DNA of 42,487 nucleotides from Nitrospiraceae bacterium (lineage in GTDB: Bacteria > Nitrospirota > Nitrospiria > Nitrospirales > Nitrospiraceae): NCBI GenBank assembly GCA_037442105.1, contig JBBIQV010000027.1:1-42487 (forward strand), given 5' to 3'. Positions 12,733-31,934 of this stretch are shown here, in pieces. Every line of letters begins with the position of its first letter. Position 1 is the stretch's first letter. Position numbers and translations under genes: made by a program. Below the pieces are notes generated by a model that was not told the origin of the DNA, made no database searches, and saw only the letters and a program-made list of their open reading frames with translations.

Positions 12733-14229
12733 CTATCCGCCGAATGGCAGAACAGGCGGGATTACCGACGCGGAGGGACCGGCAAGGTGTGAAAACTTGA
12801 GCGTCGCAGCCACGACCCAGTCGATGAACGGCTGGGGATAGATGCCGATGATCAGGGTGCCGGCTAACCCCGCATAGAGGACAGCCCTCATGGGACCGGA
12901 AATGGTCAACGGAGTCGGGTCGTGCGGTTCGTTGATGTACATCTTCTTCACGACGACGAGATAGTAATACATGGAGATAACGATGTTGATCAGACCGACC
13001 GTGATAAGGGTGTACAAACCTTCGTTCATGGCTGCGACGAAGATGTAGAGTTTGCCGATGAATCCGGCTAGTGGAGGCACTCCTGCAAGGGACAAGAGGA
13101 AGACCAGCATGGCGAAGGCCAGGAACGGGGATCGCCGGTTCAGACCGTTGTAGTCGTCGATCTCGTCGCTGCCGATCAGGTTGCTCACGGCGATGACAAC
13201 CGCAAAGGCGCCGAGATTGGCGAAGAGATAGGTCAAGAGATAGAACAGAATCGCATCGCTTCCCATCTTGGTTCCGGACGCCAACCCAATCAGCACGTTG
13301 CCGATCTGAGCGATCCCGGAATAGGCCAGCAGGCGTTTGATGTTCCGTTGCGCGATGGCCACGATGTTCCCATAGGTCATCGAGAGGATCGAGGCGGCTA
13401 CCAGCAACAACACCCACGTGGGCTTGAAGGTGGCCAGGGCCACATAGAACATCCGCAACAGGATGGCGAACGCCGCCCCCTTTGGCGCAATCGATAAGAA
13501 GGCGGTCACCGGCGTCGGCGAGCCGTGATAGGTGTCGGGAATCCAGGAGTGAAACGGCACCGCGCCGATCTTGAACCCCAGGGCTGCGAAAACCAGCAGG
13601 AAGCCGATCACCAAACCCGGTGTCATGGTTGCGTTAGTCATGTCCGAGAAAACCAGCCTGCCTGTTTCGCCATAGACGAGACTGATCCCGTAGGCGAGCA
13701 GCCCGGCGGCAAAGACGCCGAGGATGAAGAACTTCAGACCCGCTTCGTTGGAGGCGACGTCCTCACGCAAGTACGCCACGAGCACATAGAAGCCGAAGGT
13801 CGAGAACTCCAGCGTGATGAAGACCGACAGGAGGTCGTTCGCCGAAGCCATGAACATCATCCCCAAGGCCGACATCACGACGAGGAAGTAATACTCGCCC
13901 TTGAAGAAGGTGAAACGGTGGACATAATCGATGGAGATGAGGACGATCAGGGTGGTCGCGCCGACGATAAACATCTTGAAGAACAGCGCCAGGCGATCCA
14001 ACACGAACATGTTCCCGAACAACTCACCGGACAGCTCGGTGAGGTCGAACCAGGCCAGAATCCCCAGCGTCACCACCAAGCCGGCGACGCTCAGATAGGC
14101 AAGCTGTTCCTGCCTGATGCGGGGGAACGAGAAATCGGCGATCAAGACCACACAGAGCCAGCAGGTCAAGAATATCTCCGGCAGAAGGAGCAGAAGATCG
14201 GAGCCGGACATGGTGAGCGAGAAGGTCAT
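12733..14229 (-). CDS. nuoN: NADH-quinone oxidoreductase subunit N
   Basis: EAGLKFF, GFKIGAVPFHSW.PD.Y.GSP, KRLLAYSGIA, SLAGVPP. Confidence 0.96.
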   Translation of the reverse strand: MTFSLTMSGSDLLLLLPEIFLTCWLCVVLIADFSFPRIRQEQLAYLSVAGLVVTLGILAWFDLTELSGELFGNMFVLDRLALFFKMFIVGATTLIVLISIDYVHRFTFFKGEYYFLVVMSALGMMFMASANDLLSVFITLEFSTFGFYVLVAYLREDVASNEAGLKFFILGVFAAGLLAYGISLVYGETGRLVFSDMTNATMTPGLVIGFLLVFAALGFKIGAVPFHSWIPDTYHGSPTPVTAFLSIAPKGAAFAILLRMFYVALATFKPTWVLLLVAASILSMTYGNIVAIAQRNIKRLLAYSGIAQIGNVLIGLASGTKMGSDAILFYLLTYLFANLGAFAVVIAVSNLIGSDEIDDYNGLNRRSPFLAFAMLVFLLSLAGVPPLAGFIGKLYIFVAAMNEGLYTLITVGLINIVISMYYYLVVVKKMYINEPHDPTPLTISGPMRAVLYAGLAGTLIIGIYPQPFIDWVVAATLKFSHLAGPSASVIPPVLPFGG

Positions 14230-15905
14230 CGTGTACCTGTAGAGCCGTCAGCTTTCAGCCGGTCAGCTGTCAGCTCAGGAGTGGTAACCTCCGTCGCCGC
14301 AAGCTGATGGCTGATGGCTGATGGCTGACTGCTGTCCTGAGCCAGCGGGACCACGTGGGTGATCCGCGCCACCAGCGGGTCCACGCCCGACCGGACGACG
14401 GAGTACAGATGCCCAGGAAAGATGCCGTAACCGATGCTAACCGCGATCATCAACAGCAGCGGGAGTCGGTCGATCGTTGCCACGGCGTCATGGGAGTGGC
14501 TGTATTTCTGATCCATCGGACCGTAGAACAGTCCTCGCATCATCTTGAAGAGATAGGCCATGGTCAGGACGATGCCGAGCATGGCGATAATGACCTGGAA
14601 CGGATACTTGTTCCAACTGCCGACGATGATCATGACCTCGGCAATGAAGTTCACGGTCCCCGGCATGCCGATCGAGGCCATACAGGCAACGATGAAACAG
14701 GCTGAGATGAACGGCATCCGGTTGGACAAGCCACCCAGCGATGGAATGTCTCTGCTGTGAGTCTGGTCATAGACCCACCCGGCCATAGCGAACAACATGC
14801 CCGTTGCCATCGCGTGGGCAAACATGTAGATCACCGCTCCGCTCAAACTAATGTAGTCCAGCGCCGCCATCCCAAGAAACACATAGCCCATATGGCTAGA
14901 GCTGGAATAGCCGATGACATACTTCGTATCCTTCGCGTAGAACGCCACGAAGCCGCCATAGATGATGCTGAAGATGCAGAGGACGGCCGCAATGGGCATC
15001 AACTCTCGGGTCGTGTCCGGCAAGATCTCGAAGGCGACGCGGATGATCGAGAAGTGGCCCAGCTTCATCAGCACGCCCGCATGCAACATGCTGGTGGCGG
15101 CCGGAGCGGCGGCGTGCCCTACCGGCGACCACGAATGCAGCGGCCAGAGCGGGGCGATCGAGGCGAAGCCGAAGAAGACCAAGATCCAGATGATCGTGGC
15201 CAACGTGCCGGTGAAGTGCGCCTTCTCGCGCAGCACGAGAATGTCGAAGGTGTTCAGGCCTGAGAACTTGTAGATAAGGAGAATGCCCATGAGGGCAAAA
15301 ACGGCTCCCGCGGAGAGGAACAGGGTCAATTTCATCGCCGCGTATTCTTTGCTGTTGGAGGCGAAGTTGAAGATAAAGCCGACCGAGTCTCGCTTCTTGA
15401 GGCCTTCCGGATCGGTCATTTCCAGATACTTCTTCGTGTGACTCCCCCAGATGCCGAGCAGCAGGTACATGGGGATGACCGACATCTCGTAGAAGAAGTA
15501 GAGGAAAAAGAGATCCAAGGACATGAAGACGCCGATCGTGGCGGCAGCCAGAATCAACAGGAAGATGTAGAACTCTTTCGTACGGTCCTTGATATGCCAG
15601 GAGATAAAGATGCCGGCGAACAGCAGGATGGCTGAGGCTAACACGAGCGGGGTACCGATGCCGTCGACCCCGACATAAAGGGCGATGCCGAGCTGTTTGG
15701 ACCATTCGTACCGCTGGACGAACTGGAACCCTCCCTTGACGGGATCGTAGGCATAAAACACGTAGAAAGAAGCCAACAGAGAAACAAAGGCCGATCCGGC
15801 TGCGACTCCGCGGACCAACAGTGCCTGACGATTCGGCACGAAAATCAGCGCAATGGCTCCGACGAATGGGGCAAAGAGGATATAAATGAGTGTGTACTCA
15901 GCCAT
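14226..15905 (-). CDS. nuoM: NADH-quinone oxidoreductase subunit M (second copy)
   Basis: GVDGI, FFYE, PLHSW, AGVLMKLG, MASIGMPGT..F.AE; start ATG 15905 or GTG 15914. Confidence 0.93.
   Translation of the reverse strand: MAEYTLIYILFAPFVGAIALIFVPNRQALLVRGVAAGSAFVSLLASFYVFYAYDPVKGGFQFVQRYEWSKQLGIALYVGVDGIGTPLVLASAILLFAGIFISWHIKDRTKEFYIFLLILAAATIGVFMSLDLFFLYFFYEMSVIPMYLLLGIWGSHTKKYLEMTDPEGLKKRDSVGFIFNFASNSKEYAAMKLTLFLSAGAVFALMGILLIYKFSGLNTFDILVLREKAHFTGTLATIIWILVFFGFASIAPLWPLHSWSPVGHAAAPAATSMLHAGVLMKLGHFSIIRVAFEILPDTTRELMPIAAVLCIFSIIYGGFVAFYAKDTKYVIGYSSSSHMGYVFLGMAALDYISLSGAVIYMFAHAMATGMLFAMAGWVYDQTHSRDIPSLGGLSNRMPFISACFIVACMASIGMPGTVNFIAEVMIIVGSWNKYPFQVIIAMLGIVLTMAYLFKMMRGLFYGPMDQKYSHSHDAVATIDRLPLLLMIAVSIGYGIFPGHLYSVVRSGVDPLVARITHVVPLAQDSSQPSAISHQLAATEVTTPELTADRLKADGSTGTR
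14243..14334. repeat. AGCNNTC/GCTGANN heptamer hairpin inside the nuoM 3' end
   Basis: AGCCGTC AGCTTTC AGCCGGTC AGCTGTC AGC ... GCTGATG x3 GCTGACT GCTG. Confidence 0.88.
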
Positions 15906-15910
15906 CTCGT

Positions 15911-17527
15911 TCACTCAAGGCTAGAGCCTCGTGGCCTCGGGCCAGAGACCAGTAGCTCCCCCTCGCCTCGCGCTTCGCGCCCCTCGGCGGGCGGGAGCGT
16001 CGCGACCGCCAAACCCCGATCCAGTCTTTCGACCAGGGCCTGAACCGAGCCATTCATCATGCGGAGAAACGGCGAGGGATAGAGCCCGATCCACAGAATC
16101 ATGATCGACAGCGACACGGCGATGACCAGCTCGCCCGGCCGCAGGTCGGCCAGCTTGTGCGTCAGATTCTTCGTCAAAGGGCCGAACATCGCGCGCTCGT
16201 AGTACCAGAGGAAGTAGGCCGCTCCGAAGATGACACCCGACACCGCGATCGCGCCATACCACCACTTGGCTTTGAAGGCGCCCAGCAGGATCAGGAACTC
16301 ACCGACGAATCCGTTGGTGCCGGGCAACCCGATCGACGCCAAGCCGATGATCAAGAAAAAGGTGGCGAGCAGAGGAACCTGTTGCGCCAGCCCGCCGAAT
16401 GCCGTCATCGAAGTCGTCTGTCGTCGGGAGTAGAGGAAGCCCGCAATGAAAAAGAGCCCGGCTGTGCTGAAGCCCAGATTGATCATCGTCAGGAGACTGC
16501 CCTGCAAGCCCTGGTAATTCAGCGCGAAGAGCCCCACCACGACGAACCCGAGGTGGCTGATGCTGCTGAAAGCCAAAAGCCGGCGGAAGTCCGGCTGGAT
16601 CAACGCCATAATCGCGCCATAGAGAATTGCGGCGAGACCGAGGAGCATCACAATCGTCACCACCGTCTCGCTCTTCGATGCCTCCGGCAACAGCGGGATG
16701 CTGAATCGCATGAAGCCGAAGGTACCGAGCTTCAGGCCTCCAAGCACAACTGCCATGCCGATAGGGCCTTCCATCAGCGCATCCGGGAGCCAAGTGTGGA
16801 ACGGGAACACCGGCGCCTTGAAAGCAAAGCCGAAGAAGATCAGCCAGAAGATCAGCACCTGCTGTTCGACCGGCACCGGCACCGCGAGCAGTTCCAGTAA
16901 GTCGAAGGAATAGGTTGGTTCGACTTGATGGGTGACGGCCCAGTTGTGGTAGTTGATGTTCAGCAGCGCAAAGCCAACCAGCATGAAGACGGACCCGAGC
17001 AGCGTGTACAGCACATACTTCAGCGCGGCATACTGGCGCTCGGCCCCTCCCCCCCACAACTTGATCAGGAAATAGCTGGGGATCAGCATCAGTTCCCAGA
17101 AGACGAAGAACAGGATCAGATCGATCGATACGAACACGCCGATCGTGGCCGTTTCCAAAGCAAGCAGAGCCATAAAATAGAGCTTGATCTGGCTGCGCAC
17201 CGTCTCCCACGAATAGACGACGATCAGCACCGTGAGAAAGGCGGTGAGTGCCACGAACAGCACGCTGATGCCGTCCACCGCGAGGTGGTAGCTGATGCCG
17301 AGCGGAGGAATCCACCGTGCACGTTCCACGAACTGCATGGCCGCGGAATCGGGGACGAAGCGCAGCAGCACGACGATGGCAAGGACGAGTTCCAACAACG
17401 AAATCCCCAACGCACCGGTCCGGACCATGTCTTCATCCTCGATCAGCCAGAGCACCGCCGCTCCGACCAGCGGGAGGAAAAGGAGGCAGGATAGAATGGG
17501 AAACCCGAAGGCGAATTCTTCCAACAT
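15911..17527 (-). CDS. nuoM: NADH-quinone oxidoreductase subunit M (first copy)
   Basis: AVDGIS, FFVFWE, FKAPVFPFHTWLPDA, LKLG, SISHLG, LASIGLPGTNGFVGE. Confidence 0.95.
   Translation of the reverse strand: MLEEFAFGFPILSCLLFLPLVGAAVLWLIEDEDMVRTGALGISLLELVLAIVVLLRFVPDSAAMQFVERARWIPPLGISYHLAVDGISVLFVALTAFLTVLIVVYSWETVRSQIKLYFMALLALETATIGVFVSIDLILFFVFWELMLIPSYFLIKLWGGGAERQYAALKYVLYTLLGSVFMLVGFALLNINYHNWAVTHQVEPTYSFDLLELLAVPVPVEQQVLIFWLIFFGFAFKAPVFPFHTWLPDALMEGPIGMAVVLGGLKLGTFGFMRFSIPLLPEASKSETVVTIVMLLGLAAILYGAIMALIQPDFRRLLAFSSISHLGFVVVGLFALNYQGLQGSLLTMINLGFSTAGLFFIAGFLYSRRQTTSMTAFGGLAQQVPLLATFFLIIGLASIGLPGTNGFVGEFLILLGAFKAKWWYGAIAVSGVIFGAAYFLWYYERAMFGPLTKNLTHKLADLRPGELVIAVSLSIMILWIGLYPSPFLRMMNGSVQALVERLDRGLAVATLPPAEGREARGEGELLVSGPRPRGSSLE
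15960..15987. repeat. Degenerate 4x7-bp tandem repeat inside the nuoM 3' end
   Basis: CCCTCGC CTCGCGC TTCGCGC CCCTCGG, encoding the EGREARGEG tail. Confidence 0.5.
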
Positions 17528-17545
17528 CGATAACCTGTATGCCTC

Positions 17546-19540
17546 TTACCGTGCAGCCAAACCGAGGGGCGATGCGCCCGCCATCCAGATCAGGATGAGA
17601 TGCACTAAGATAAACAGCCCCGCCACAATGATGGCTGCGTAGTGATGCACCATGCCGCTCTGCAGCTTGCGCCAGGATCGGGCGGCCAGATGGTTGCTAT
17701 ATCCAATGACGTTCAGTCCCCCATAAATCACGTGCTTCTCGATCCACGTGCTGCCGGCAGAGCCCCACTCCGCCGCTTGCCCCACCATGCGCACGATCCA
17801 GTCGATGACATTCCGGTCGAACCATTCGAGCAGATGCCCAAGACGCTTGCAGGGTTCGACGAACAAGAAATCATAGAGTTCATCGACGTAGTACTTGTTC
17901 AAGAGCGTGGTATATGCTCCGGGCGCGCGCACAGCCCAGTTGTCCGCCGTACTCGGACTGATGCTGTAGAGGTAGTGCGCCAGCCCCCAGCCCAGCAGAG
18001 CGATCGCAGTCGCGGCCCCCATCAGCGTCAGGATCACCCCGATCCCTGCTTCATGCGCCTCCGCCAAGGCCCCGACCACCGGCTGCAGGAAGTGATGGAA
18101 CCACCCCTTCTCCGGAGGTACACCGGGGAACCCGCCGATGACCGAGAGCGTGGCAAGGACCACCAGCGGAGCGATCATGACGACCGGCGATTCGTGGATG
18201 TGCTCCGCCGTGTGGTGATCGACCCGCGATGAGCCGTAGAACGTCAGGTGCGTGAGGCGGAACATGTAAAAGGCCGTGAGGAATGCGCCGATCGCCCCCA
18301 TGGCATAGAGCACGTAGTGGTGATGCATGAACGCATGGCCCAGAATCTCATCCTTGCTCCAGAATCCGGCCAGCGGCGGAAGGCCCGCGATCGCCAGCGT
18401 CCCGATGAGAAACACTCGGTGGGTCCAGGGAATCTTCGCTCGCAAGCCCCCCATTCTTCGAATGTCCTGCTCGCCCGAGAGGGCATGAATGACCGATCCG
18501 GCCGAGAGGAACAGCAGGGCTTTGAAGAATGCGTGGGTCATCAGATGGAAAATGGCTGCCGTGTAGGCTCCGATCCCGCAGCCGAGGAACATATAGCCGA
18601 GCTGACTCACCGTGGAGTAGGCCAACACCCGCTTGATGTCCGTTTGCACCAGGCCGATCGTGGCCGCGAACAGGGCGGTGGCTCCGCCGACCCAGGCCAC
18701 CGTGGTCATGGCCACGGGCGACAGATCGTAAATGACGTGGTTGCGGACGATCATGTAGACGCCGGCGGTGACCATCGTGGCGGCATGGATCAAGGCGCTG
18801 ACCGGCGTGGGACCTTCCATGGCGTCCGGCAGCCAGGTATAGAGAGGGATCTGGGCCGACTTGCCGACGGCGCCGACGAGCAGGCACAGGGCGATGGCCG
18901 TGGCCATGGTCGGCGAGAGTTGACCGGCCTGCGCAAAGACCTGGGTGTAATCCAGGGTCTTGAAGTTGACGAAGACGAGGAAGATGGCCAGCAGAAAGCC
19001 GGCGTCGCCGATGCGGTTCACGACGAAGGCCTTGGTCGCAGCCTTCGCGGCCGAGATGCGGTCGTAATAGTACCCGATCAGGAGATAGGAGCAGAGTCCG
19101 ACGCCTTCCCATCCGATGAAGAGCACCGCGTAGTTGTTGCCCATCACCAGCAACAACATGGAAACCATGAAAAGATTCATGTACGTGAAGAAGCGCGTGA
19201 ACCCCGCTTCGCCGTGCATGTACCCCACGGAGTAGACATGGATCAGAAACCCGACACCGGTGACGACCAGGAGCATGATGCAGGTGAGGGGGTCGATCAA
19301 GAAGGCGAGGTTGATCGTCAGATCTCCGCCGAAGATCCATTTATAGGCTACGACTTCGCGGGCTTGGCCGGACTGGAGCGTGTCCGCGAAGACGGTAATG
19401 GCGCAGAGAAACGAGAGGAGGACGGATCCCCAGGCCAGCTGGTGGGCCCGGTCGTGCGAGTAGCGGCTCCCCAGCAGGCCGTTCAGCACGACGGCGATGA
19501 GCGGGAAGACAGGGATGAGGATAACCAGGAGATCGAACAT
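17546..19540 (-). CDS. nuoL: NADH-quinone oxidoreductase subunit L with elongated lateral helix
   Basis: GWEGVG, NRIGD, GKSAQ.PL..WLPDAMEGPTPVSALIHAATMV; 664 aa. Confidence 0.97.
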   Translation of the reverse strand: MFDLLVILIPVFPLIAVVLNGLLGSRYSHDRAHQLAWGSVLLSFLCAITVFADTLQSGQAREVVAYKWIFGGDLTINLAFLIDPLTCIMLLVVTGVGFLIHVYSVGYMHGEAGFTRFFTYMNLFMVSMLLLVMGNNYAVLFIGWEGVGLCSYLLIGYYYDRISAAKAATKAFVVNRIGDAGFLLAIFLVFVNFKTLDYTQVFAQAGQLSPTMATAIALCLLVGAVGKSAQIPLYTWLPDAMEGPTPVSALIHAATMVTAGVYMIVRNHVIYDLSPVAMTTVAWVGGATALFAATIGLVQTDIKRVLAYSTVSQLGYMFLGCGIGAYTAAIFHLMTHAFFKALLFLSAGSVIHALSGEQDIRRMGGLRAKIPWTHRVFLIGTLAIAGLPPLAGFWSKDEILGHAFMHHHYVLYAMGAIGAFLTAFYMFRLTHLTFYGSSRVDHHTAEHIHESPVVMIAPLVVLATLSVIGGFPGVPPEKGWFHHFLQPVVGALAEAHEAGIGVILTLMGAATAIALLGWGLAHYLYSISPSTADNWAVRAPGAYTTLLNKYYVDELYDFLFVEPCKRLGHLLEWFDRNVIDWIVRMVGQAAEWGSAGSTWIEKHVIYGGLNVIGYSNHLAARSWRKLQSGMVHHYAAIIVAGLFILVHLILIWMAGASPLGLAAR

Positions 19541-19553
19541 TCTCTTAATTCTT

Positions 19554-19620
19554 AGCTGTCAGTTTTCAGCCATCAGCTCTCAGCTCCTGCAGAAGCTGCT
19601 GACCGCTGACGGCTGATAGC
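19554..19620. repeat. AGCNNTC/GCTGANN heptamer hairpin, nuoK-nuoL spacer
   Basis: AGCTGTC AGTTTTC AGCCATC AGCTCTC AGC ... GCTGACC GCTGACG GCTGATA GC. Confidence 0.88.
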
Positions 19621-19628
19621 GGTTTTCG

Positions 19629-19931
19629 TTACCACTTCAGCAAGTTCATTTCGTCCACGTTGGTGGAAATCTTTCCACGGAACACGACGATGATAATGGC
19701 CAGCCCCACCGCGGCTTCGCCGGCGGCGATGGCGATCACGAACAGCGCCACGATTTGGCCCGCCATGGATTCCAGGTAATGGGAGAAGGCCACCAGGTTA
19801 ATGTTGGCAGCATTCAGCATGATCTCGACCGCCATCAAGACGATGATGAAGTTTCGCCTGATCAGGACCCCGAGCAGACCGGTCGCAAAGAGCACGGCGC
19901 TGACCGCGACGTATGCGCTTAAGGGAACCAT
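19629..19931 (-). CDS. nuoK: NADH-quinone oxidoreductase subunit K
   Basis: RRN..LMAVEIMLNA, AAGEAAVGLA, ends LLKW. Confidence 0.96.
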   Translation of the reverse strand: MVPLSAYVAVSAVLFATGLLGVLIRRNFIIVLMAVEIMLNAANINLVAFSHYLESMAGQIVALFVIAIAAGEAAVGLAIIIVVFRGKISTNVDEMNLLKW

Positions 19932-19943
19932 AAAATTACATCC

Positions 19944-20048
19944 GGCTATCAGCCACCAGCCGTCAGCTTTCAGCTTCGGACAACCGAACGAGCGATGGAT
20001 AACGACTCGCGGTCTTGGCTGAATGCTGAAAGCTGATCGCTGACAGCT
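19944..20048. repeat. AGCNNTC/GCTGANN heptamer hairpin, nuoJ-nuoK spacer
   Basis: GGCTATC AGCCACC AGCCGTC AGCTTTC AGC - 43 nt - GCTGAAT GCTGAAA GCTGATC GCTGACA GCT. Confidence 0.88.
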
Positions 20049-20052
20049 TCAT

Positions 20053-20574
20053 TTACTCCTGTTCCACATCCGCGGCCCTCGGCGTTTTCGCCAACACAAT
20101 CGCGCCGATAATGGCGCCCAAGAGAAAGATGCCCACGATCTCGAAGGCGAGGAGATAATCGCTAAACATCTTGATGCCGACCGCGTGCGTGTCTCCGTTC
20201 TGAAGCACCGCAGCCGCCGGCGCATCCCCTTTGGCGCCGCCGAAGGGCGACCGCACCATCAGCATGAGCAAATAGACCGTTCCGATCACGGCCGGAACCA
20301 AGAAGTAGGGATACTTCGAGTGGAAGTATCGTTCGTCGGTTTTCAAGTTGAGGAGCATCAGCACGAACAGATACAGCACAAGGATCGCGCCTGCATAGAC
20401 CACGACCTGGACTGCCCAGAGAAATTCCGCGTTGAGCAGCACGAACAGTCCGGACACGTGCAGCAGCAAGGCCAGTAACGCGAGCCCGCATTGCACGGGG
20501 TTCTTCAACGCGACGGTCAAAACCCCTGCGGCGATACTCACCAGCGAGAAGTAGGCAAAAAAGAACGGCACCAT
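20053..20574 (-). CDS. nuoJ: NADH-quinone oxidoreductase subunit J
   Basis: NPV, LNAEFL..VQVVVYAGAILVLYLFVLMLL, YLLAFE. Confidence 0.96.
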   Translation of the reverse strand: MVPFFFAYFSLVSIAAGVLTVALKNPVQCGLALLALLLHVSGLFVLLNAEFLWAVQVVVYAGAILVLYLFVLMLLNLKTDERYFHSKYPYFLVPAVIGTVYLLMLMVRSPFGGAKGDAPAAAVLQNGDTHAVGIKMFSDYLLAFEIVGIFLLGAIIGAIVLAKTPRAADVEQE

Positions 20575-20579
20575 CTGGT

Positions 20580-21167
20580 TCAGCTCAAATGTTTGGGTGG
20601 TGGTTGGGTGGATTTGAGCACCGACTGTGGAAAGTAGTAGCGGTACTCGCGGTTCTGCTCGGAGTCTTTTTCCTGGTTATGGGCCACCAGATATTTTTTC
20701 GCGTCCGCGAGATGGCGCTCGCCGATCTCGTAGAGCCGCTTCTTATCGAACAGGAGGGTGCGCTTGTCGTGGGTGGAAAACTCGTACATCTTCGTCATGG
20801 CCAGCGCATTGACCGGGCAGGCCTCGACGCAGTAGCCGCAGAAGACGCACTTGGTGATGTCGATGTAAAACTCGCTCGCGTACCGTTGAAGCGGAAGATC
20901 CTTCCGCTCCTGGCTGACCACTTTGATGCATCGGGACGGACAAGCCGCTTCGCAGAGGTCGCAACCCACGCAGCGCTCTCTGCCGTCGTCGTAGCGGAGC
21001 AGGCCGAGCGCCCCACGGTGCCCGTCGGGGATCGTGCGCTGTTCGCGCGGGTACTGAAACGTGATCGGCTTATGGAACATGTGCTTGAAGGTCACCTTCA
21101 TCGCGTCCCAGATTTCATAGAACAACGCGGCCTGGAGCACTTTCTTGGTCAGGACTGCGACACTCAT
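20580..21167 (-). CDS. nuoI: NADH-quinone oxidoreductase subunit I
   Basis: ITFQYP, CVGCDLCEAACP and CVFCGYCVEACP; GGAG RBS before ATG 21167. Confidence 0.96.
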   Translation of the reverse strand: MSVAVLTKKVLQAALFYEIWDAMKVTFKHMFHKPITFQYPREQRTIPDGHRGALGLLRYDDGRERCVGCDLCEAACPSRCIKVVSQERKDLPLQRYASEFYIDITKCVFCGYCVEACPVNALAMTKMYEFSTHDKRTLLFDKKRLYEIGERHLADAKKYLVAHNQEKDSEQNREYRYYFPQSVLKSTQPPPKHLS

Positions 21168-21189
21168 CGCTCGCTCCACAGCGCCTGCT

Positions 21190-23889
21190 TCATGCCTTCT
21201 CGATGCTGACCCACGTCAGCTTGAAGGACGGGACTCCGGTGGTCGGGTTCACGTCCACGGTCATCAGATCCTTCACGGGAGGATCGTTAAAATGCTCAGG
21301 GAAGAAGCAGGAGCCCGCCAGCACCGCCGGGTCCGCTTGCACACCGAGAAGCAGCGAACCGCGATCGGACGTGACCTTGACCATTGCACTCTCAGTCAGC
21401 CCCAGCCGCTCCATATCCTGCGCGTGCATCCGCAACCGCTGCGTATTGGGTGCCACTTTGACCAGCCCCGAAGCCTGGGTCGACAGCTTGCCGGAGTGAT
21501 AGAGAAGCTGGCCCATGATCAGGGCGAACCGATGCGCGACTGTTGACCATTGACGATTGACGATTGACGAATACCGACTTCCCACCTCGGCGACAAAACC
21601 ATTTGCAAGGTAGTCATCTGCTTTGGGCGTAATTTTCCGCGGCTGCCCCAGGTTGTAGTAGCCCGGAAGCAGCTTCATGATTTCGTTTTGGATGTTTTGC
21701 GGGGTTTCGTAGTTCCACTCGGAACCCAAGCCATTAGCCAGCGCGGTCATGATGTGCCAGTCCGGCAGGCTTTCTCCAACAGGGTCCATGGCTTGCCGGA
21801 CACGCAAGACCTTCCCTTCCAAGTTTGTGAAGGTGCCTTCTTTCTCCGCGTAAGTGCAGGCGGGAAGGACGACGTAAGCCAACTGAGCTGTTTCAGTCAG
21901 AAACGGATCCTGGCAGATGAGCAGATCAACCCGCTCCAGAGCCGCATGCACATCACAGGAAGCGGGAAGTGTAGCGAGCGGATTCTCTCCGATGAGATAA
22001 AGCGCCTTGATCTGACCGCTGCGGCAGCGGGAGAGAATGTCCATCAGGCTGGCGCCCGTCCCCATTGCCGGAAGGCTCGCGTCCCACGCCTTGGCGAACC
22101 GTTCGCGAGCAGCCGGGTCGTCGAACCTGGCTTGGCCTGGCAAGAACTCCGGCGCGACCCCCATGTCTACAGCGCCTTGTTCGTTGATCTCCTCCGTCAC
22201 CGTGTTCACACCGCAACCAGGTCGGCCGAGCTTGCCCGTGACCCAGGCTAGATCGATCAGTTTGAGTATGTTCTGGTACCCATCCGGGCGACGGACGATC
22301 CCTTCAGCGCAGAGAATGATGGACCTTGGGGCCTCGGCGAATATCGACGCAGCCTCGTTGATCGAGTCGCCAGAAATCCCGGTTTGCACAGACACCTGTT
22401 CCAGCGAAATATTCGCAAGCGCCTGTTTCAATGCCGCATAGGCCTGCGGGTGTTGTGTTGTCGCCTCCTCGTCCACCAGGTCTTGTTCGATCACCGCCTT
22501 CACCAGCCCGTCGATGAATACTCCCTCCGTTCCCGGTTTGACCAACAGGGGATGGGATGCCAGCTTGGCGATGTTGGTGTTGGCCGAATCGACCACGATG
22601 ACCTGCGACTTGTACACGCGGATCGATTCCTTCACCCGCACCGACGTGAGCGGATTGGTCTCGGTGATATTGGACCCGATCAAGAGAATGGCCTTGGCCT
22701 TCGTGATGTCTTCCCAGTCGTTCGGCATGCGGCCGATGCCGAAGGCGTGTTTGGCGGCACGCACAAAATTCGCATGCCCGTAGCGGGCACTGCTATCGAG
22801 CTGATTGGTCCCGATGACTGTTCGCATCAGTTTCTGGAACAGATATAGCTCTTCGTTGGTACAGCGGGCCGTGATCAACCCAGCAATGGCCTGTGACCCA
22901 TGCTTGGCCTTGATGGTGGAAAGACGCTCGATGACCTGCTGCATGGCCTCGATCCACGGCGTCTCGACCAATCTTCCCTCTCGCCTGACAAGAGGCCGCA
23001 TCAGTCGAGCGCCGCTATCGATGTACTGGAAACCGAACCGGCCGCGGACGCACAGTCCGCCGTGGCCCTTGACGGTTTCGGCGCGATCGCCCCATTTGTT
23101 TTTCCAGGAGAGGGGCGACGTCACGCGGACGACTTCCGAATCTTTCGTTTCCAGAAACATCTGGCAGCCGTCGCCGCAGTAGTTACACGTCGTCGCGGTT
23201 TTCTTCATCTGCCACGGCTTGTACTGATATTTGGAATACTTATTCGTGATCGCGCCGACGGGGCACACCGCCAGGCAGTCTCCGCAGAATTCGCAGGAGA
23301 GCGGGACATCGCCTTTGGCCACCACCTGGTTGAACCCGCCTTTCTTCATGAACTGGAGGGCATCGATCATCAACACGTCCTTGCAGACGTTGATACACTG
23401 GGCGCAGGCGATACAGCGATTCATGTTGAAGTCCAGCACCAGGCTCCGTGTGTCCTCCGGGATGAACTTCTGCTTGGCATTGGCAAGGTTTGTCACGCCG
23501 TGCAGGAAGGCCATGTCTTGGAGTTCGCAGTGGCCGTCCGCATCGCACACCGGGCAGTCTAATGGGTGGACTGAGAGGTGCTTTTCCACCGCTTTCCTTC
23601 TGGCCTGAAACAGGTCATCGCCTTCTGTGCGGATGACCATCCCGGCTGTGGCCTTCGCCGTGCATGAACGAACCGGCGCCTTCTTCCCTTCCTGTATCAC
23701 CAGACACATGCCGCAGGATCCGAATGGATCGAAGGTGTAGTGGTAACACATGGCCGGAATGACCTTGCCCGTGCTGGCCACCACGTCGTATAGAGAGACC
23801 CCATCCTTGGCCGTGACGGTCTGGCCGTCGATCGTCAGTTCGATCGTCGCGGCTTCGACTTCAGGATTGGTCGCCGGCTTCAGTCCCAT
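21190..23889 (-). CDS. nuoG: NuoG-like Fe-S subunit (formate-dehydrogenase-alpha-like scaffold)
   Basis: 2Fe-2S motif (CY..CGMC..C), HPLDCPVC..C, two CxxCxxCxxxC motifs, CNYCGDGC..C, molybdopterin-oxidoreductase-like body; position in nuo operon. Confidence 0.88.
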   Translation of the reverse strand: MGLKPATNPEVEAATIELTIDGQTVTAKDGVSLYDVVASTGKVIPAMCYHYTFDPFGSCGMCLVIQEGKKAPVRSCTAKATAGMVIRTEGDDLFQARRKAVEKHLSVHPLDCPVCDADGHCELQDMAFLHGVTNLANAKQKFIPEDTRSLVLDFNMNRCIACAQCINVCKDVLMIDALQFMKKGGFNQVVAKGDVPLSCEFCGDCLAVCPVGAITNKYSKYQYKPWQMKKTATTCNYCGDGCQMFLETKDSEVVRVTSPLSWKNKWGDRAETVKGHGGLCVRGRFGFQYIDSGARLMRPLVRREGRLVETPWIEAMQQVIERLSTIKAKHGSQAIAGLITARCTNEELYLFQKLMRTVIGTNQLDSSARYGHANFVRAAKHAFGIGRMPNDWEDITKAKAILLIGSNITETNPLTSVRVKESIRVYKSQVIVVDSANTNIAKLASHPLLVKPGTEGVFIDGLVKAVIEQDLVDEEATTQHPQAYAALKQALANISLEQVSVQTGISGDSINEAASIFAEAPRSIILCAEGIVRRPDGYQNILKLIDLAWVTGKLGRPGCGVNTVTEEINEQGAVDMGVAPEFLPGQARFDDPAARERFAKAWDASLPAMGTGASLMDILSRCRSGQIKALYLIGENPLATLPASCDVHAALERVDLLICQDPFLTETAQLAYVVLPACTYAEKEGTFTNLEGKVLRVRQAMDPVGESLPDWHIMTALANGLGSEWNYETPQNIQNEIMKLLPGYYNLGQPRKITPKADDYLANGFVAEVGSRYSSIVNRQWSTVAHRFALIMGQLLYHSGKLSTQASGLVKVAPNTQRLRMHAQDMERLGLTESAMVKVTSDRGSLLLGVQADPAVLAGSCFFPEHFNDPPVKDLMTVDVNPTTGVPSFKLTWVSIEKA
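21543..21570. repeat. (TTGACGA)n heptamer array inside nuoG
   Basis: TTGACCA TTGACGA TTGACGA TTGACGA; translated as SSIVNRQWST. Confidence 0.85.
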
Positions 23890-23900
23890 GCTCTAACTCC

Positions 23901-23960
23901 AGCTATCAGCCGTCAGCTCTCAGCAGTCAGCCTTTAGCTGAAAGCTGATCGCTGAACGCT
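23901..23960. repeat. AGCNNTC/GCTGANN heptamer hairpin, nuoD-nuoG spacer
   Basis: AGCTATC AGCCGTC AGCTCTC AGCAGTC AGC - 5 nt - GCTGAAA GCTGATC GCTGAAC GCT. Confidence 0.88.
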
Positions 23961-23966
23961 CCCTTG

Positions 23967-25211
23967 CTAGCGGTCGCACTCCCCCATCACAATGTCGTAG
24001 GTCCCGAAGATCGTGACGGCGTCGGCGATCATATAGCCTCTCGACATAAAATCGAACGCGCCCATGTGAATGAACGAGGGGGCGCGGATTTTCAACCGGT
24101 AGGGCTTGCCCCCGCCCGTGCTCACGATATAGAACCCGAGCTCGCCCTTGTGTGCCTCGGTGCCGCAATAAATTTCTCCCGGAGGAGCGTTGAAGCCCTG
24201 CGAGAAAAGTTTAAACTGCTGGATCATGGAATCGAGGTTGGTGAAGACCCGCTCCTTGGGCGGTAGAGTCACACTGGGCACATCCGCCATGATCGGCCCC
24301 TCTTGCATCTGATCGAGGCACTGCCGGATGATCTTCACACTCTCATACATCTCCTGGACGCGGATCCAGTACCGGTCGTACGTATCGCCGTTCTTGCCGA
24401 CAGGCACGCTGAACTCGCACTTGGGATAGGCCGCATAAGGCTCGTACTTGCGCAGGTCGTAATTCACCCCCGATCCTCGGAGCGTTGGCCCGCTCAGGCC
24501 GAAATTCACGGCATCTTCCGCGGAGATCACGGCAATCCCTTTGGTCCTCGCAAGCCAGATCCGGTTCTTTTCGAGGAACACGACGTACTCGTCGATCTTG
24601 GGAGGAAAGTAGTCCAGGAACTGGCGCAATTTGTTCAGGAGCGACGGGGTGAAGTCCCGCTCCACTCCGCCGATCCGGTACCAGCTCGTCGTCAACCGCG
24701 CGCCACAGAGTTCATCGAACCAGTCGAGCAGGATCTCGCGGTCGCGGAAGCAGTAGAAGAAGACCGTCATGGCGCCAATGTCGAGCGCCTGCGTGCCCAG
24801 CCAGAACTGGTGGCCGATGATCCGCTGTACCTCCGCGACGATCGTTCGCAGATACTCGGCCCGCTCCGGCACAGTGATGTTCATCAACTTCTCGACCGCC
24901 CGGCAGTAGGCAAAATTGTTGTACATGGCGCAGACGTAATCGAGGCGGTCCGTATGGGGAATGAACTGGTGGTAGGTGCCTTCCTCTGCGAGCTTTTCAA
25001 CCCCGCGGTGGAGGAACCCCATCACCGGCGTGGACTTGACGAGCCGCTCCCCTTCCAACTCGAGGATGACTTTCAGCACTCCGTGGGTGCTCGGATGCTG
25101 CGGCCCCATGTTGAGAAGTAGCTCTTCCGTACGGAGCGTCGGGAGCGTGGCGCTCTCCGGATGTTCAGGATCGACTTTGTAAACGGTGGTCCGTTGGTCG
25201 TGGAGCTTCAT
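23967..25211 (-). CDS. nuoD: NADH-quinone oxidoreductase subunit D
   Basis: LNMGPQHPSTHGVL, LHRGVEK, DRLDY, ends DIVMGECDR; ATG 25211 preferred because the listed upstream extension runs through a repeat. Confidence 0.96.
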   Translation of the reverse strand: MKLHDQRTTVYKVDPEHPESATLPTLRTEELLLNMGPQHPSTHGVLKVILELEGERLVKSTPVMGFLHRGVEKLAEEGTYHQFIPHTDRLDYVCAMYNNFAYCRAVEKLMNITVPERAEYLRTIVAEVQRIIGHQFWLGTQALDIGAMTVFFYCFRDREILLDWFDELCGARLTTSWYRIGGVERDFTPSLLNKLRQFLDYFPPKIDEYVVFLEKNRIWLARTKGIAVISAEDAVNFGLSGPTLRGSGVNYDLRKYEPYAAYPKCEFSVPVGKNGDTYDRYWIRVQEMYESVKIIRQCLDQMQEGPIMADVPSVTLPPKERVFTNLDSMIQQFKLFSQGFNAPPGEIYCGTEAHKGELGFYIVSTGGGKPYRLKIRAPSFIHMGAFDFMSRGYMIADAVTIFGTYDIVMGECDR

Positions 25212-25220
25212 CTTTATTTT

Positions 25221-25280
25221 TAGCGAACAGCGAGTAGCCGGCAGCAAATAGCTCTGAGCTGTTCGCTATGAGCTATTCGC
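25221..25280. repeat. (T/C)AGCNNN heptamer hairpin, nuoC-nuoD spacer
   Basis: TAGCGAA CAGCGAG TAGCCGG CAGCAAA TAGCTCT GAGCT GTTCGCT ATGAGCT ATTCGC. Confidence 0.75.
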
Positions 25281-25767
25281 GTTCATTCAAGAATTCAAAT
25301 GTGTCGCGCCAGCCCTTGCCACGAAGCGGGAAGTCCTTTCGCAACGGATAGCCCTCGGTGTACTCATCCGGCATGAGAATCCGGCGCAGGTCGGGGTGGT
25401 TGCGGAACCGGACCCCCATCATGTCGTACACCTCGCGCTCCATGAAGTCGGCGCCCTTCCAAATATCGGTCAGGGAATCCACCACACAGTCAGACTCAGG
25501 CACACGCGCCTTCAGCCTGATGCGATGCCGCCTCCGGATGGAATAGAATTCATAGACTACTTCGAACCGCATCTCATCATCCGGCCAGTCTACCGAGCTG
25601 ACGTGCACGATGTAATCGAAGTCCATCGTCGGGTCGTCATGAAGGAATCGGGCTACATCGTGCAGTGCCTCGCGTGTTACGGTCACGGCAACGTCCCCTC
25701 GCCATTCCACGGCTTTTACGAAGCCGGACGGGAACGTATCCTGAACTCGTTCGGCCAACCGATGCAT
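25273..25767 (-). CDS. nuoC: NADH-quinone oxidoreductase subunit C
   Basis: RFEVVY, EREVYDMMGVRF..HPDLRRILMP, YPLRKDFP. Confidence 0.96.
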   Translation of the reverse strand: MHRLAERVQDTFPSGFVKAVEWRGDVAVTVTREALHDVARFLHDDPTMDFDYIVHVSSVDWPDDEMRFEVVYEFYSIRRRHRIRLKARVPESDCVVDSLTDIWKGADFMEREVYDMMGVRFRNHPDLRRILMPDEYTEGYPLRKDFPLRGKGWRDTFEFLNERE

Positions 25768-25781
25768 CACCCTCTCACCCC

Positions 25782-26297
25782 TTACACTCTGACCTGCTCC
25801 GGCTGCTTGGTGAAGACCCGCTTCTGCATGATGCGTTCTTGCAGCTTAAGAATCCCGTCAAAGAGGGCCTCGGGAGTCGGCGGACAGCCGGGTACGTAAA
25901 TGTCCACGGGAATGAATCGATCGACACCCTGCACGACGCTGTAACTGTCGTAAATGTTGCCCGAGGTGGCACAGGAGCCCATCGCGATCACATACTTGGG
26001 CTCCGGCATCTGGTCATAGATTTTCCGGATGACCGGCGCCATGCGGCGGCACACCGTGCCGGCGACGATCATCAGGTCGGACTGACGCGGGGAGGCTCGA
26101 AACACCCCGGCGCCATACCGGTCCATGTCGTACCGTGAAGATACTGCCGCGATCATTTCGATCGCACAGCAGGCCAGACCGAACGTCATGGGCCACAGAG
26201 ACCCCTTGCGCGCCCAGTTGACCGCTTTCTCAACGGTGGTTGTGATGACGTCCGGCTGTCCATCCTTGTCGTGTCGTCCGAGTTGAATTAAACCCAC
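25782..26297 (-). CDS. nuoB: NADH-quinone oxidoreductase subunit B
   Basis: [30 protein letters not shown]. Confidence 0.97.
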
Positions 26298-26310
26298 AAC
26301 AACCTCCAGA

Positions 26311-26380
26311 AGCTCTCAGCATTCAGCGATCAGCTTTCAGCTCGAACCGACGGCTGATGGCTGAGAGCTGATGGCTCACA
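26311..26380. repeat. AGCNNTC/GCTGANN heptamer hairpin, nuoA-nuoB spacer
   Basis: AGCTCTC AGCATTC AGCGATC AGCTTTC AGC - 11 nt - GCTGATG GCTGAGA GCTGATG GCTCACA. Confidence 0.88.
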
Positions 26381-26381
26381 A

Positions 26382-26765
26382 TTAATCCCATTCCAATGCG
26401 CCCTTCCGCCAAGCATAGACGTAAGCGACTAAGAAGAGCGCGATGAAGATGAGCATCTCGACCAGGCCGATCAGCCCAACCTTGTCGAACACCACGGCCC
26501 AGGGATAAAGAAAGATCACTTCGATGTCGAAGATCACGAACAGCATGGCGAAGATGTAATACCGGACAGGGAACGGCATGCGAGCATCGGAGAAGGGCTC
26601 GCTCCCGCATTCGTATGCAGAGAGCTTTTCCGATTCGGGATACTTGGGCTGAACCAGATAACTGATGACTAAAGTAACGACCCCAAACGCGAGCGCGATC
26701 ACGATGAACAGCAAGATGGGAAAATATCTCGCTAAATAGTCAAGGAGCACGCCCGCACCGTCCAT
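26382..26765 (-). CDS. nuoA: NADH-quinone oxidoreductase subunit A
   Basis: AYECG, FVIFDIE..FLYPWA, ends KGALEWD. Confidence 0.97.
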   Translation of the reverse strand: MDGAGVLLDYLARYFPILLFIVIALAFGVVTLVISYLVQPKYPESEKLSAYECGSEPFSDARMPFPVRYYIFAMLFVIFDIEVIFLYPWAVVFDKVGLIGLVEMLIFIALFLVAYVYAWRKGALEWD

Positions 26766-26810
26766 CCCACCCCCCCACCCAACACCTTGACTTACCGTGT
26801 GGAGCTGGCA

Positions 26811-26840
26811 ATCTTAGGCTTTCAAGATTTCCAATAGCAA
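26811..26840 (-). promoter_or_regulatory. Candidate sigma70 promoter of the nuo operon
   Basis: Minus strand TTGCTA-N18-TAAGAT about 45 nt upstream of the nuoA start. Confidence 0.3.
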
Positions 26841-26969
26841 GCGAACAAAGGACCTACCGGACCAGACCCGAAAGTCCTAGCCTTCGCATTAAACTGACAG
26901 CTTTCAGCTAAACGCCGACTTGCGACAAGCCGGTATGTATGAATGCGGGCTAAAAGTACTATGCGCCGA

Positions 26970-27164
26970 TTACGATTGCCGGTCGCCGCGTCGCTGCATG
27001 AGATCCGGAGAGGTTCGCAAGCGGGTTGGAAATGGTTCTTTGCTGGCATCCCATTCGGCAACAAGAGATGAAAAGGCCTTCACCTTCTTTCTACGAGGAA
27101 TTTGGGTATCGATACGGCGTTTCTTTGGTGCCGGAACGGCGTCGGGACGATCGCTGTCGGGCAT
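26970..27164 (-). CDS. Possible small basic hypothetical protein (64 aa)
   Basis: AGGA RBS before ATG 27164; fills an otherwise empty gap; no recognisable motif. Confidence 0.3.
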   Translation of the reverse strand: MPDSDRPDAVPAPKKRRIDTQIPRRKKVKAFSSLVAEWDASKEPFPTRLRTSPDLMQRRGDRQS

Positions 27165-31441: not shown

Positions 31442-31882
31442 TCAGCTATCGGCGCGACGACTCCTCGCGTGCTTCCCGTCCTTCTTCCCCACCGGCGGTG
31501 CGCTCGAGCTGGACGGCGCTGGCGCAGCCAGCCGGCGCGCCCTCTTGAACAGGCCGAACGCAAACGTTGTCCAGAAGACGGAGGAAAAGAGGCCGAAGAG
31601 GACGGCATTGAGAATCTCGCCCATCTGCTCATCGGTTGGTTGGGCCGTCGCCGCCCGAATCTGCGCCATCGTCACAATGGGCCACATCAGGCTCTCCAAT
31701 CCCAGCAACAGCGTCGACCATGCCCACACAAGGCCGATCGTCGTTCCCTGCCATACCAGAAGCCCTGCGATGGACAGGCCGATGGCCACGCTCCACCAAA
31801 TGGGCAGGGCGCCGCAGATGATCCAGAAGCCGACCGTGACTACAAGGCTGCCGAGTACGGCATTGAGCTGTGGAGTCCGCAT
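31442..31882 (-). CDS. Hypothetical membrane protein (~4 TM)
   Basis: 146-aa ORF with several hydrophobic segments and a basic tail; abuts the priA stop. Confidence 0.75.
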   Translation of the reverse strand: MRTPQLNAVLGSLVVTVGFWIICGALPIWWSVAIGLSIAGLLVWQGTTIGLVWAWSTLLLGLESLMWPIVTMAQIRAATAQPTDEQMGEILNAVLFGLFSSVFWTTFAFGLFKRARRLAAPAPSSSSAPPVGKKDGKHARSRRADS

Positions 31883-31892
31883 GGGGATTGGC

Positions 31893-31934
31893 TAGAGGTT
31901 AGTGGAAAGTGGTGAGTAGTGAGTGGCTGGTGGA
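31893..31934. repeat. One-sided NAGTGGN heptamer array
   Basis: TAGAGGT TAGTGGA AAGTGGT GAGTAGT GAGTGGC TGGTGGA. Confidence 0.6.

Follow-up and report, generated by a model that had tools for sequence, protein, structure and literature searches.

The 42,487-nucleotide stretch of Nitrospiraceae DNA analysed here (the window; contig JBBIQV010000027.1) contains an operon for respiratory complex I in which five hairpins, built of tandem heptamers with TCAGC cores in one arm and GCTGA cores in the other, are lodged at or near gene junctions. These hairpins are, by a somewhat better than even judgement, the gene-less and non-autonomous forms of a selfish cassette, resembling intervening sequences (IVS) and the Avd protein, whose complete form encodes a PF05635 four-helix-bundle protein, and they would be tolerated by folding out of the mRNA. 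That they are selfish gene-less inserts and not a conserved control signal is likely, because their arms are common to a gene cassette and because they are gained, lost and swapped between close relatives. Two separate puzzles, the abundance of heptamer repeats in bacteria and a pentamer family (PF05635) without a function, would then be tied to one testable unit.

The hairpins of the nuo operon

The operon (12733-26765, reverse strand) has the composition nuoA-B-C-D-G-I-J-K-L-M1-M2-N. Its hairpins lie at 14243-14334 (four cores in each arm, 28-nt loop), 19554-19620 (nuoK/nuoL), 19944-20048 (nuoJ/nuoK, 43-nt loop), 23901-23960 (nuoD/nuoG, 5-nt loop) and 26311-26380 (nuoA/nuoB), and their loops range from 5 to 43 nt. 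A sequence-only reading of the window had placed five elements at these coordinates and they are present there. The architecture that it described, four units on one side of a loop and three or four on the other, holds overall, but a number of the units deviate from the consensus or measure 8 nt. Its nuo gene identities are also correct, with the addition that the operon has two nuoM genes. Four elements occupy intergenic gaps (A/B, D/G, J/K and K/L) as it proposed; the fifth, which it assigned to an M/N gap, is not intergenic: 14243-14334 makes up the last ~35 codons of the nuoM2 ORF (14226-15914, reverse strand) and is translated as an in-frame C-terminal tail. All five fold as interrupted stems, with z-scores against shuffled sequence of -5.08, -3.95, -6.05, -4.59 and -3.16. 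Positions 14000-27000 yield no Rfam match at E <= 1.

The gene-bearing form

All five TIGR02436 (PF05635) genes of the genome from which the window comes (G000; 2.81 Mb, 87% complete) lie between inverted heptamer arrays, each with a different unit. One of these filled cassettes, C2:17957-18358, has the TCAGC/GCTGA unit, so that within this one genome an inverted heptamer unit is common to a filled cassette and to the empty hairpins. A single ORF stands alone between its arms, its stop codon lying inside an arm, and the encoded protein is a member of PF05635 (E 4e-38). The predicted structure of this protein (mean predicted local distance difference test, pLDDT, 95.9; the fold from the single sequence is poor, pLDDT 55) superimposes on the pentameric Xcc0516 (2GSC) with a template modelling score (TM) of 0.92 and on Avd (4DWL) with a TM of 0.78. 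Five proteins with five arm codes in one genome make a direct test of specificity possible.

The association is not confined to this genome. The sequence-only reading had suggested that small four-helix-bundle genes are often flanked by such repeats; the five-for-five record in G000 supports that link, as do 114 four-helix-bundle loci from the family Nitrospiraceae and other phyla, 101 of which have inverted arms. Arm similarity at these loci is 0.75 within a locus, 0.54 across loci and 0.47 in direct orientation. The more alike two of the proteins are, the more alike are their units (rho 0.77 overall, 0.64 within the family and 0.65 across phyla), the terminal residues having been excluded and the 13 loci below the arm threshold dropped; the nearest proteins from Cyanobacteriota, Bacillota, Actinomycetota and Acidobacteriota have the same unit in their arms. 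(The protein tree is a quick tree, in which L005 sits on a very long branch.)

Some variants of the arrangement deserve to be recorded. Close cassette proteins (L089 and L095 versus L090, L091 and L093) have AGC- or AGT-type units that have changed jointly over both arms, and L095 lies at the same site as the AGT group. Four-helix-bundle genes at L568, L569, L572 and L582 have arm units of 8 or 9 bases, not 7. A gene at C8:20075-20719 of G000, similar to those of the transposases associated with repetitive extragenic palindromes (REP; the transposases are called RAYT), has its own 22-bp inverted repeat, which is unrelated to the heptamer arms.

Filled, collapsed and vacant states of one site

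The orthologous site of the filled cassette was located through the gene that lies upstream of it, and 30 of the 94 genomes with a match were compared as loci. Five are filled; two (G105 and G092) hold a collapsed, loop-less mini-hairpin; one holds a remnant. Three others (L200, L208 and L223) have a left-arm remnant followed by a different repeat-flanked insert, which we take to resemble a DUF559 nuclease gene. The remaining loci, that of G002, a genome of the same genus, among them, have no insert. One of the two possibilities that the sequence-only reading had entertained, the empty site of a small mobile cassette, is thus supported: the same arms surround filled and empty forms, and filled, collapsed-empty and vacant states occur at one site.

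These states also lend themselves to a simpler account, in which just the gene-bearing cassette moves and each empty hairpin is an old insertion whose gene has been deleted between the arms. That account would expect what is seen within one genus, where a single site is filled in some genomes and holds a collapsed empty in others, and empties do persist in genomes without the cognate gene. It nevertheless seems unlikely to us: not one nuo junction is filled in 80 relatives, although up to half of them carry empties; G000 has 51 empties for its one cognate gene; and a word of 10-11 nt in common with any of 7 filled cassettes is found in only 3 of 38 loops.

Abundance and placement of the family

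A genome-wide scan of G000 finds 51 paired elements of the TCAGC/GCTGA family and 39 solo arms, as compared with no paired element in 2 x 1.4 Mb of order-4 Markov sequence. Under a looser detection rule 54 pairs face inward and 1 outward. Arms have 3-5 units in 101 of 102 cases. A general detector finds 166 inverted heptamer pairs of all units (4 in the mirror control); the largest of these families match the units of the five TIGR02436 loci, and for some of the smaller ones the assembly contains no cognate gene.

Placement was scored on a set of 2881 genes from our own gene caller. Same-strand genes enclose 44 of the 51 elements; 5 are at junctions of another kind and 2 within ORFs. Without the latter two the proportion is 44 of 49, against a background of 76% (P = 0.012), and 30 of the 44 are no more than 25 nt from both stop and start. 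The anticipated placement at gene boundaries is thereby supported. The further suggestion, that the boundaries of highly expressed genes are targeted, finds no such backing in a ribosomal-protein codon proxy, which is a weak one (P = 0.87; 79 flanking genes against 2079). The nuo operon itself is enriched, with 5 of 11 junctions occupied against ~2% genome-wide. As multi-copy extragenic palindromes in transcribed junctions, the elements have one trait of REP and bacterial interspersed mosaic elements (BIME). A reading as miniature inverted-repeat transposable elements (MITE) was rejected, there being no target-site duplication and no conserved interior, and so was a reading as intrinsic terminators: no full hairpin is terminator-like, and the predictions are confined to small sub-stems at the J/K edge.

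No further TCAGC array exists in the window, as the sequence-only reading had it. Solo arrays of other units do: one (21541-21570) is in frame within nuoG, and a degenerate one (31897-31925) lies near the end of a 146-amino-acid ORF at 31442-31882. The nuoG of the operon encodes 899 amino acids, and nuoE, F and H are not among the genes of the operon. Elsewhere in G000, solo TCAGC arrays at C2:55454 and C2:136920 are translated in frame inside two proteins, presumably a dihydrolipoamide acyltransferase-like linker and a UvrA-like protein, respectively. (The labels thrH and recQ, like the names given to genes beside other elements, are our assumptions from sequence.) TCAGC-type hairpins also occur in 102 stretches of viral contigs (L365-L466), with up to ten loci on one contig.

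Turnover among relatives

The nuo junctions were compared in 80 of 120 genomes of the family. Those of the relatives are either vacant or occupied by hairpins of many different units. Occupancy by some heptamer array, a crude count, is 41/77 at D/G (4 of the TCAGC unit), 32/79 at J/K (2 of the TCAGC unit), 37/72 at the nuoM2 tail, 15/71 at A/B, 3/78 at K/L (the other 75 of the 78 having no heptamer array there) and 2/78 at I/J. The nuo operon of G002 has only the nuoM2 element (14243-14334) in common with the window; its D/G junction holds a hairpin of another unit, and the elements at K/L, J/K and A/B are missing.

The wider comparison of these two genomes has the same character. Among 29 elements of G002, 5 are without synteny, 1 is unreadable and 23 lie at syntenic sites, of which (site classes being read by eye) 11 are shared, 9 have another unit in G000, one of them nested inside, and 3 are vacant. 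The presence/absence variation that had been predicted is accordingly there, in vacant sites as well as in swaps of unit. In shared pairs, 346 of 370 core positions are identical (94%, a figure biased by the parse), as compared with 50 of 104 variable positions (48%); loops are 72% and four-fold sites 65% identical, and unit counts differ between orthologues. Change of the variable positions at a faster than neutral rate (48% against 65% at four-fold sites) was considered and is not claimed, since it is confounded by gain and loss of units.

Of 121 genomes, 102 have a pattern of three consecutive cores; the number of matches per genome runs from 0 to 132 (a related unit being included in the count). 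At least 11 matches are present in 7 of 7 genomes with a cognate gene and in 35 of 114 others, kin among these genomes not being independent.

Other material enters the same junctions. Inserts of 300-390 nt at nuoJ/K in four relatives (L026, L080, L081 and L083) carry a small transporter gene, which we take to be SMR/sugE-like. Longer palindromic inserts of a second, non-heptamer class occur at the same nuo junctions in L017, L020, L024, L051, L068, L076, L078 and L085.

It might still be argued that the host selects any stable hairpin at certain nuo junctions as a signal of mRNA processing or stability that tunes subunit output, by RNase III cleavage or as a 3' barrier, for example. The repeated occupation of D/G, J/K and the nuoM2 tail by hairpins of many units favours that argument, and so do the occupation of 5 of the 11 nuo junctions noted above, a weak strand polarity of the variable positions (P = 3e-4) and the presence of an RNase III gene in G000. 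The accessible portion of one report adds that RNase III cuts the rRNA IVS at its first heptamer (PMC4990558). What makes this argument quite improbable is the collection of facts that it leaves stranded: three of the five elements are missing from G002; at each junction, about half or more of the relatives are without a heptamer array; one copy is coding; the flanking genes have no codon bias of high expression; closure of loops by G-U pairs is largely tolerated; and none of the full hairpins is terminator-like. The suggestion that the hairpins are a conserved signal setting the stoichiometry of complex I subunits is not supported by the comparison with G002. Intergenic hairpins of a core respiratory operon that turn over within a genus call for caution against reading such structures as conserved regulation.

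Avoidance of pairing at the variable positions

The two variable positions of each unit had been expected to form 2-nt internal loops between 5-bp stems. They do so more strongly than was claimed, by avoiding complementarity: in G000, 2 of 126 in-register pairs of variable positions are complementary against 9.9 +/- 3.0 expected, and in any register 9 of 411 against 35. Seven other genomes, compared with within-genome shuffles, give 33/818 against 65 +/- 7.6 (individually, 4 of 7 have P < 0.05), and four viral contigs with a within-contig null give 28/409 against 72 +/- 7. In 122 oriented empty elements the deficit is one of full Watson-Crick pairs (30/945 against 70 +/- 7.7); G-U closures (73 against 85 +/- 8) are not clearly avoided, and their A-C mirror stands at 77 against 72. 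Empties in this way avoid unbroken Watson-Crick helices of 12 bp. The 21 filled cassettes have no deficit (24/231 against 19.9 +/- 4.2, pooled null). This rule, obeyed by empties and not by filled cassettes, amounts to a measurable selective filter on heptamer elements. A test of whether polarity produces the deficit led us to reject that explanation. Perfect DNA palindromes are unstable, and the deficit fits purging of close perfect inverted repeats at the level of DNA better than it fits a requirement of reading by a protein; a filter at the level of RNA may also be its source.

Conserved cores with free spacers (the 346 of 370 and 50 of 104 identities between orthologues given above) are also what paired sites on double-stranded DNA for a nucleoid protein or global regulator would look like, and such sites have been proposed for paired arrays of Geobacter metallireducens, a precedent that we take from part of the published account (PMC2700814). 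We regard this explanation as very improbable for the elements considered here: their orientation is fixed inward, 54 to 1; pairing across the arms is avoided; unrelated units replace each other at the same site; and their position is between stop and start, not at promoters. Local slippage or fold-back expansion of simple repeats without a dedicated protein, which would suit the homogeneous runs of some arms and the varying unit counts of orthologues, is largely refuted already and is the most improbable explanation of all, in that neighbouring variable dinucleotides are no more alike than chance (13 of 196 against 17 expected), fold-back copying would yield an excess of pairing and not a deficit, and the unit is constant with protein clade across phyla.

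A proposed mechanism

If the hairpins are gene-less forms of the PF05635 cassette, their spread might be pictured as follows. The cassette protein would be a pentamer like Xcc0516 and Avd and would bind the arms of its cassette, folded as a single strand, with about one unit to each subunit (arms have 3-5 units). That binding is inferred because of the covariation of unit and protein, the length of the arms and the five-protomer grip of Avd on a stem-loop. The protein might then single the element out so that a host enzyme copies it, and might do the same in trans for the empties, which would in this way spread to stop/start junctions. There the transcript is predicted to fold an empty out as a stem-loop, which would return the upstream stop to the neighbourhood of the downstream ribosome-binding site, and the insertion would thus be tolerated. 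Closely spaced perfect inverted repeats would be purged as unstable DNA palindromes, and the pattern of 5-bp stems and 2-nt loops would therefore remain.

A considerable number of observations weigh against this account. Neither a nuclease nor a recombinase nor a reverse transcriptase is part of the cassette; a search of G000 (an 87% complete assembly) found no GxxExxY and no DUF559; and none of the three Y1_Tnp matches in that genome is enclosed by TCAGC arms. A flank word of 5-6 nt is shared in just 4 of the 51 elements, there are no target-site duplications among them, and their loops share no sequence beyond 3 loop pairs with 9-10 nt in common. The loop of no nuo junction of the 80 relatives holds a four-helix-bundle gene. 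The cognate gene is missing, by protein search, from 7 of the 11 genomes with at least 60 triple-core matches, and TCAGC arms in family orientation were found at 0 of 18 PF05635 loci inspected in five match-rich genomes without a cognate gene. Covariation of unit and protein is also expected from plain co-inheritance, and host selection could also explain why junctions are so unevenly occupied (41/77 at D/G against 2/78 at I/J). Avoidance of pairing is a significant trend in 2 of 5 other unit families and not significant in the other 3. It is not seen, under a cross-genome null, in a pooled metagenome (169/1282 against 110) or in a pooled viral set (125/1149 against 131); that null mixed genomes, as is evident because within-arm identity was also far above it in the pooled sets, and the within-genome and within-contig nulls were therefore used next.

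A bolder generalization, which is possible but which we doubt, is that the elements belong to a class of mobile element without an enzyme of its own. An Avd-like pentamer would read a five-unit heptamer code on a folded strand and recruit host machinery, so that gene-bearing and gene-less hairpins are planted at stop/start junctions; pairs of protein and heptamer would compete, nest and overwrite each other's sites; and bacterial heptamer repeats, long without an explanation, would stem from this class. Were protein-guided mobility true, it would constitute a short-repeat system that is programmable and has no known transposase.

Comparison with known systems

Paired heptamer arrays and IVS heptamers are each already in print, separately. 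No paper tying dispersed heptamer hairpins to PF05635 genes was found in a search that covered literature outside subscription journals (supplements of the Geobacter work may bear on the link).

REP and BIME are high-copy extragenic hairpins in operons, with non-autonomous copies around a cognate RAYT gene. Like these, the elements described here form many hairpins in operons and would be non-autonomous counterparts of a form with a cognate gene. They differ in having tandem-heptamer arms and unique loops and a partner that is not an HUH transposase, and they have no conserved 20-40-bp unit flanking a RAYT gene.

The available sections of the Geobacter study describe, for G. metallireducens, tandem arrays of 7-8-nt units that are paired on opposite strands at varying distances; the pairs are specific to the species, and at the proBA junction where one of them lies a sister species has another element (PMC2700814). 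Those arrays have other units than the window elements and are interpreted in those sections as IHF/HU or regulator sites, without a link to four-helix-bundle genes. In Xanthomonas (GGGAATC) and Nostoc (short tandemly repeated repetitive sequences, STRR), according to excerpts of another account, there are 70-75 convergent inverted heptamer pairs per genome, with 4 units preferred, lying between aligned ORFs and near stop codons, and transcribed (PMC4692102). The same excerpts treat them as G-quadruplexes, which the TCAGC unit cannot form, and as near-invariant in unit, unlike the TCAGC elements, in which two positions vary and avoid pairing.

Avd, of the diversity-generating retroelements (DGR), is a pentamer all five protomers of which bind an RNA stem-loop, with bases flipped out, as the consulted part of the preprint has it (10.1101/2023.10.23.563531); homology of Avd to a PF05635-type protein is also stated in a passage of PMC10053308. 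The cassette protein has the same predicted fold (TM 0.78). Unlike the Avd of a DGR, it scores 22 and 33 bits with PF22296, for which the cut-off is 40, no reverse transcriptase lies inside the arms, and no template/variable repeat has been described.

A further likeness is to the IVS of Coxiella 23S rRNA, in which, in the part of the paper at hand, the S23p ORF is immediately preceded by tandem heptamers, the first of which is where RNase III cuts (PMC4990558). The filled form, like that IVS with its S23p ORF, has a PF05635 gene in the loop of a terminal stem, and the window elements have the terminal complementary stem. The five window elements differ in having no PF05635 ORF in the loop (only their filled relative C2:17957-18358 has one), in lying in or between protein genes and not in rRNA, in being members of a mostly gene-less set of 51 copies, and in stems that are interrupted every 5 bp, where the IVS stem, as described in that part, has 28 near-perfect base pairs. 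The elements would work like an intervening sequence moved into mRNA junctions, yet they fall outside the definitions of IVS, REP and MITE alike.

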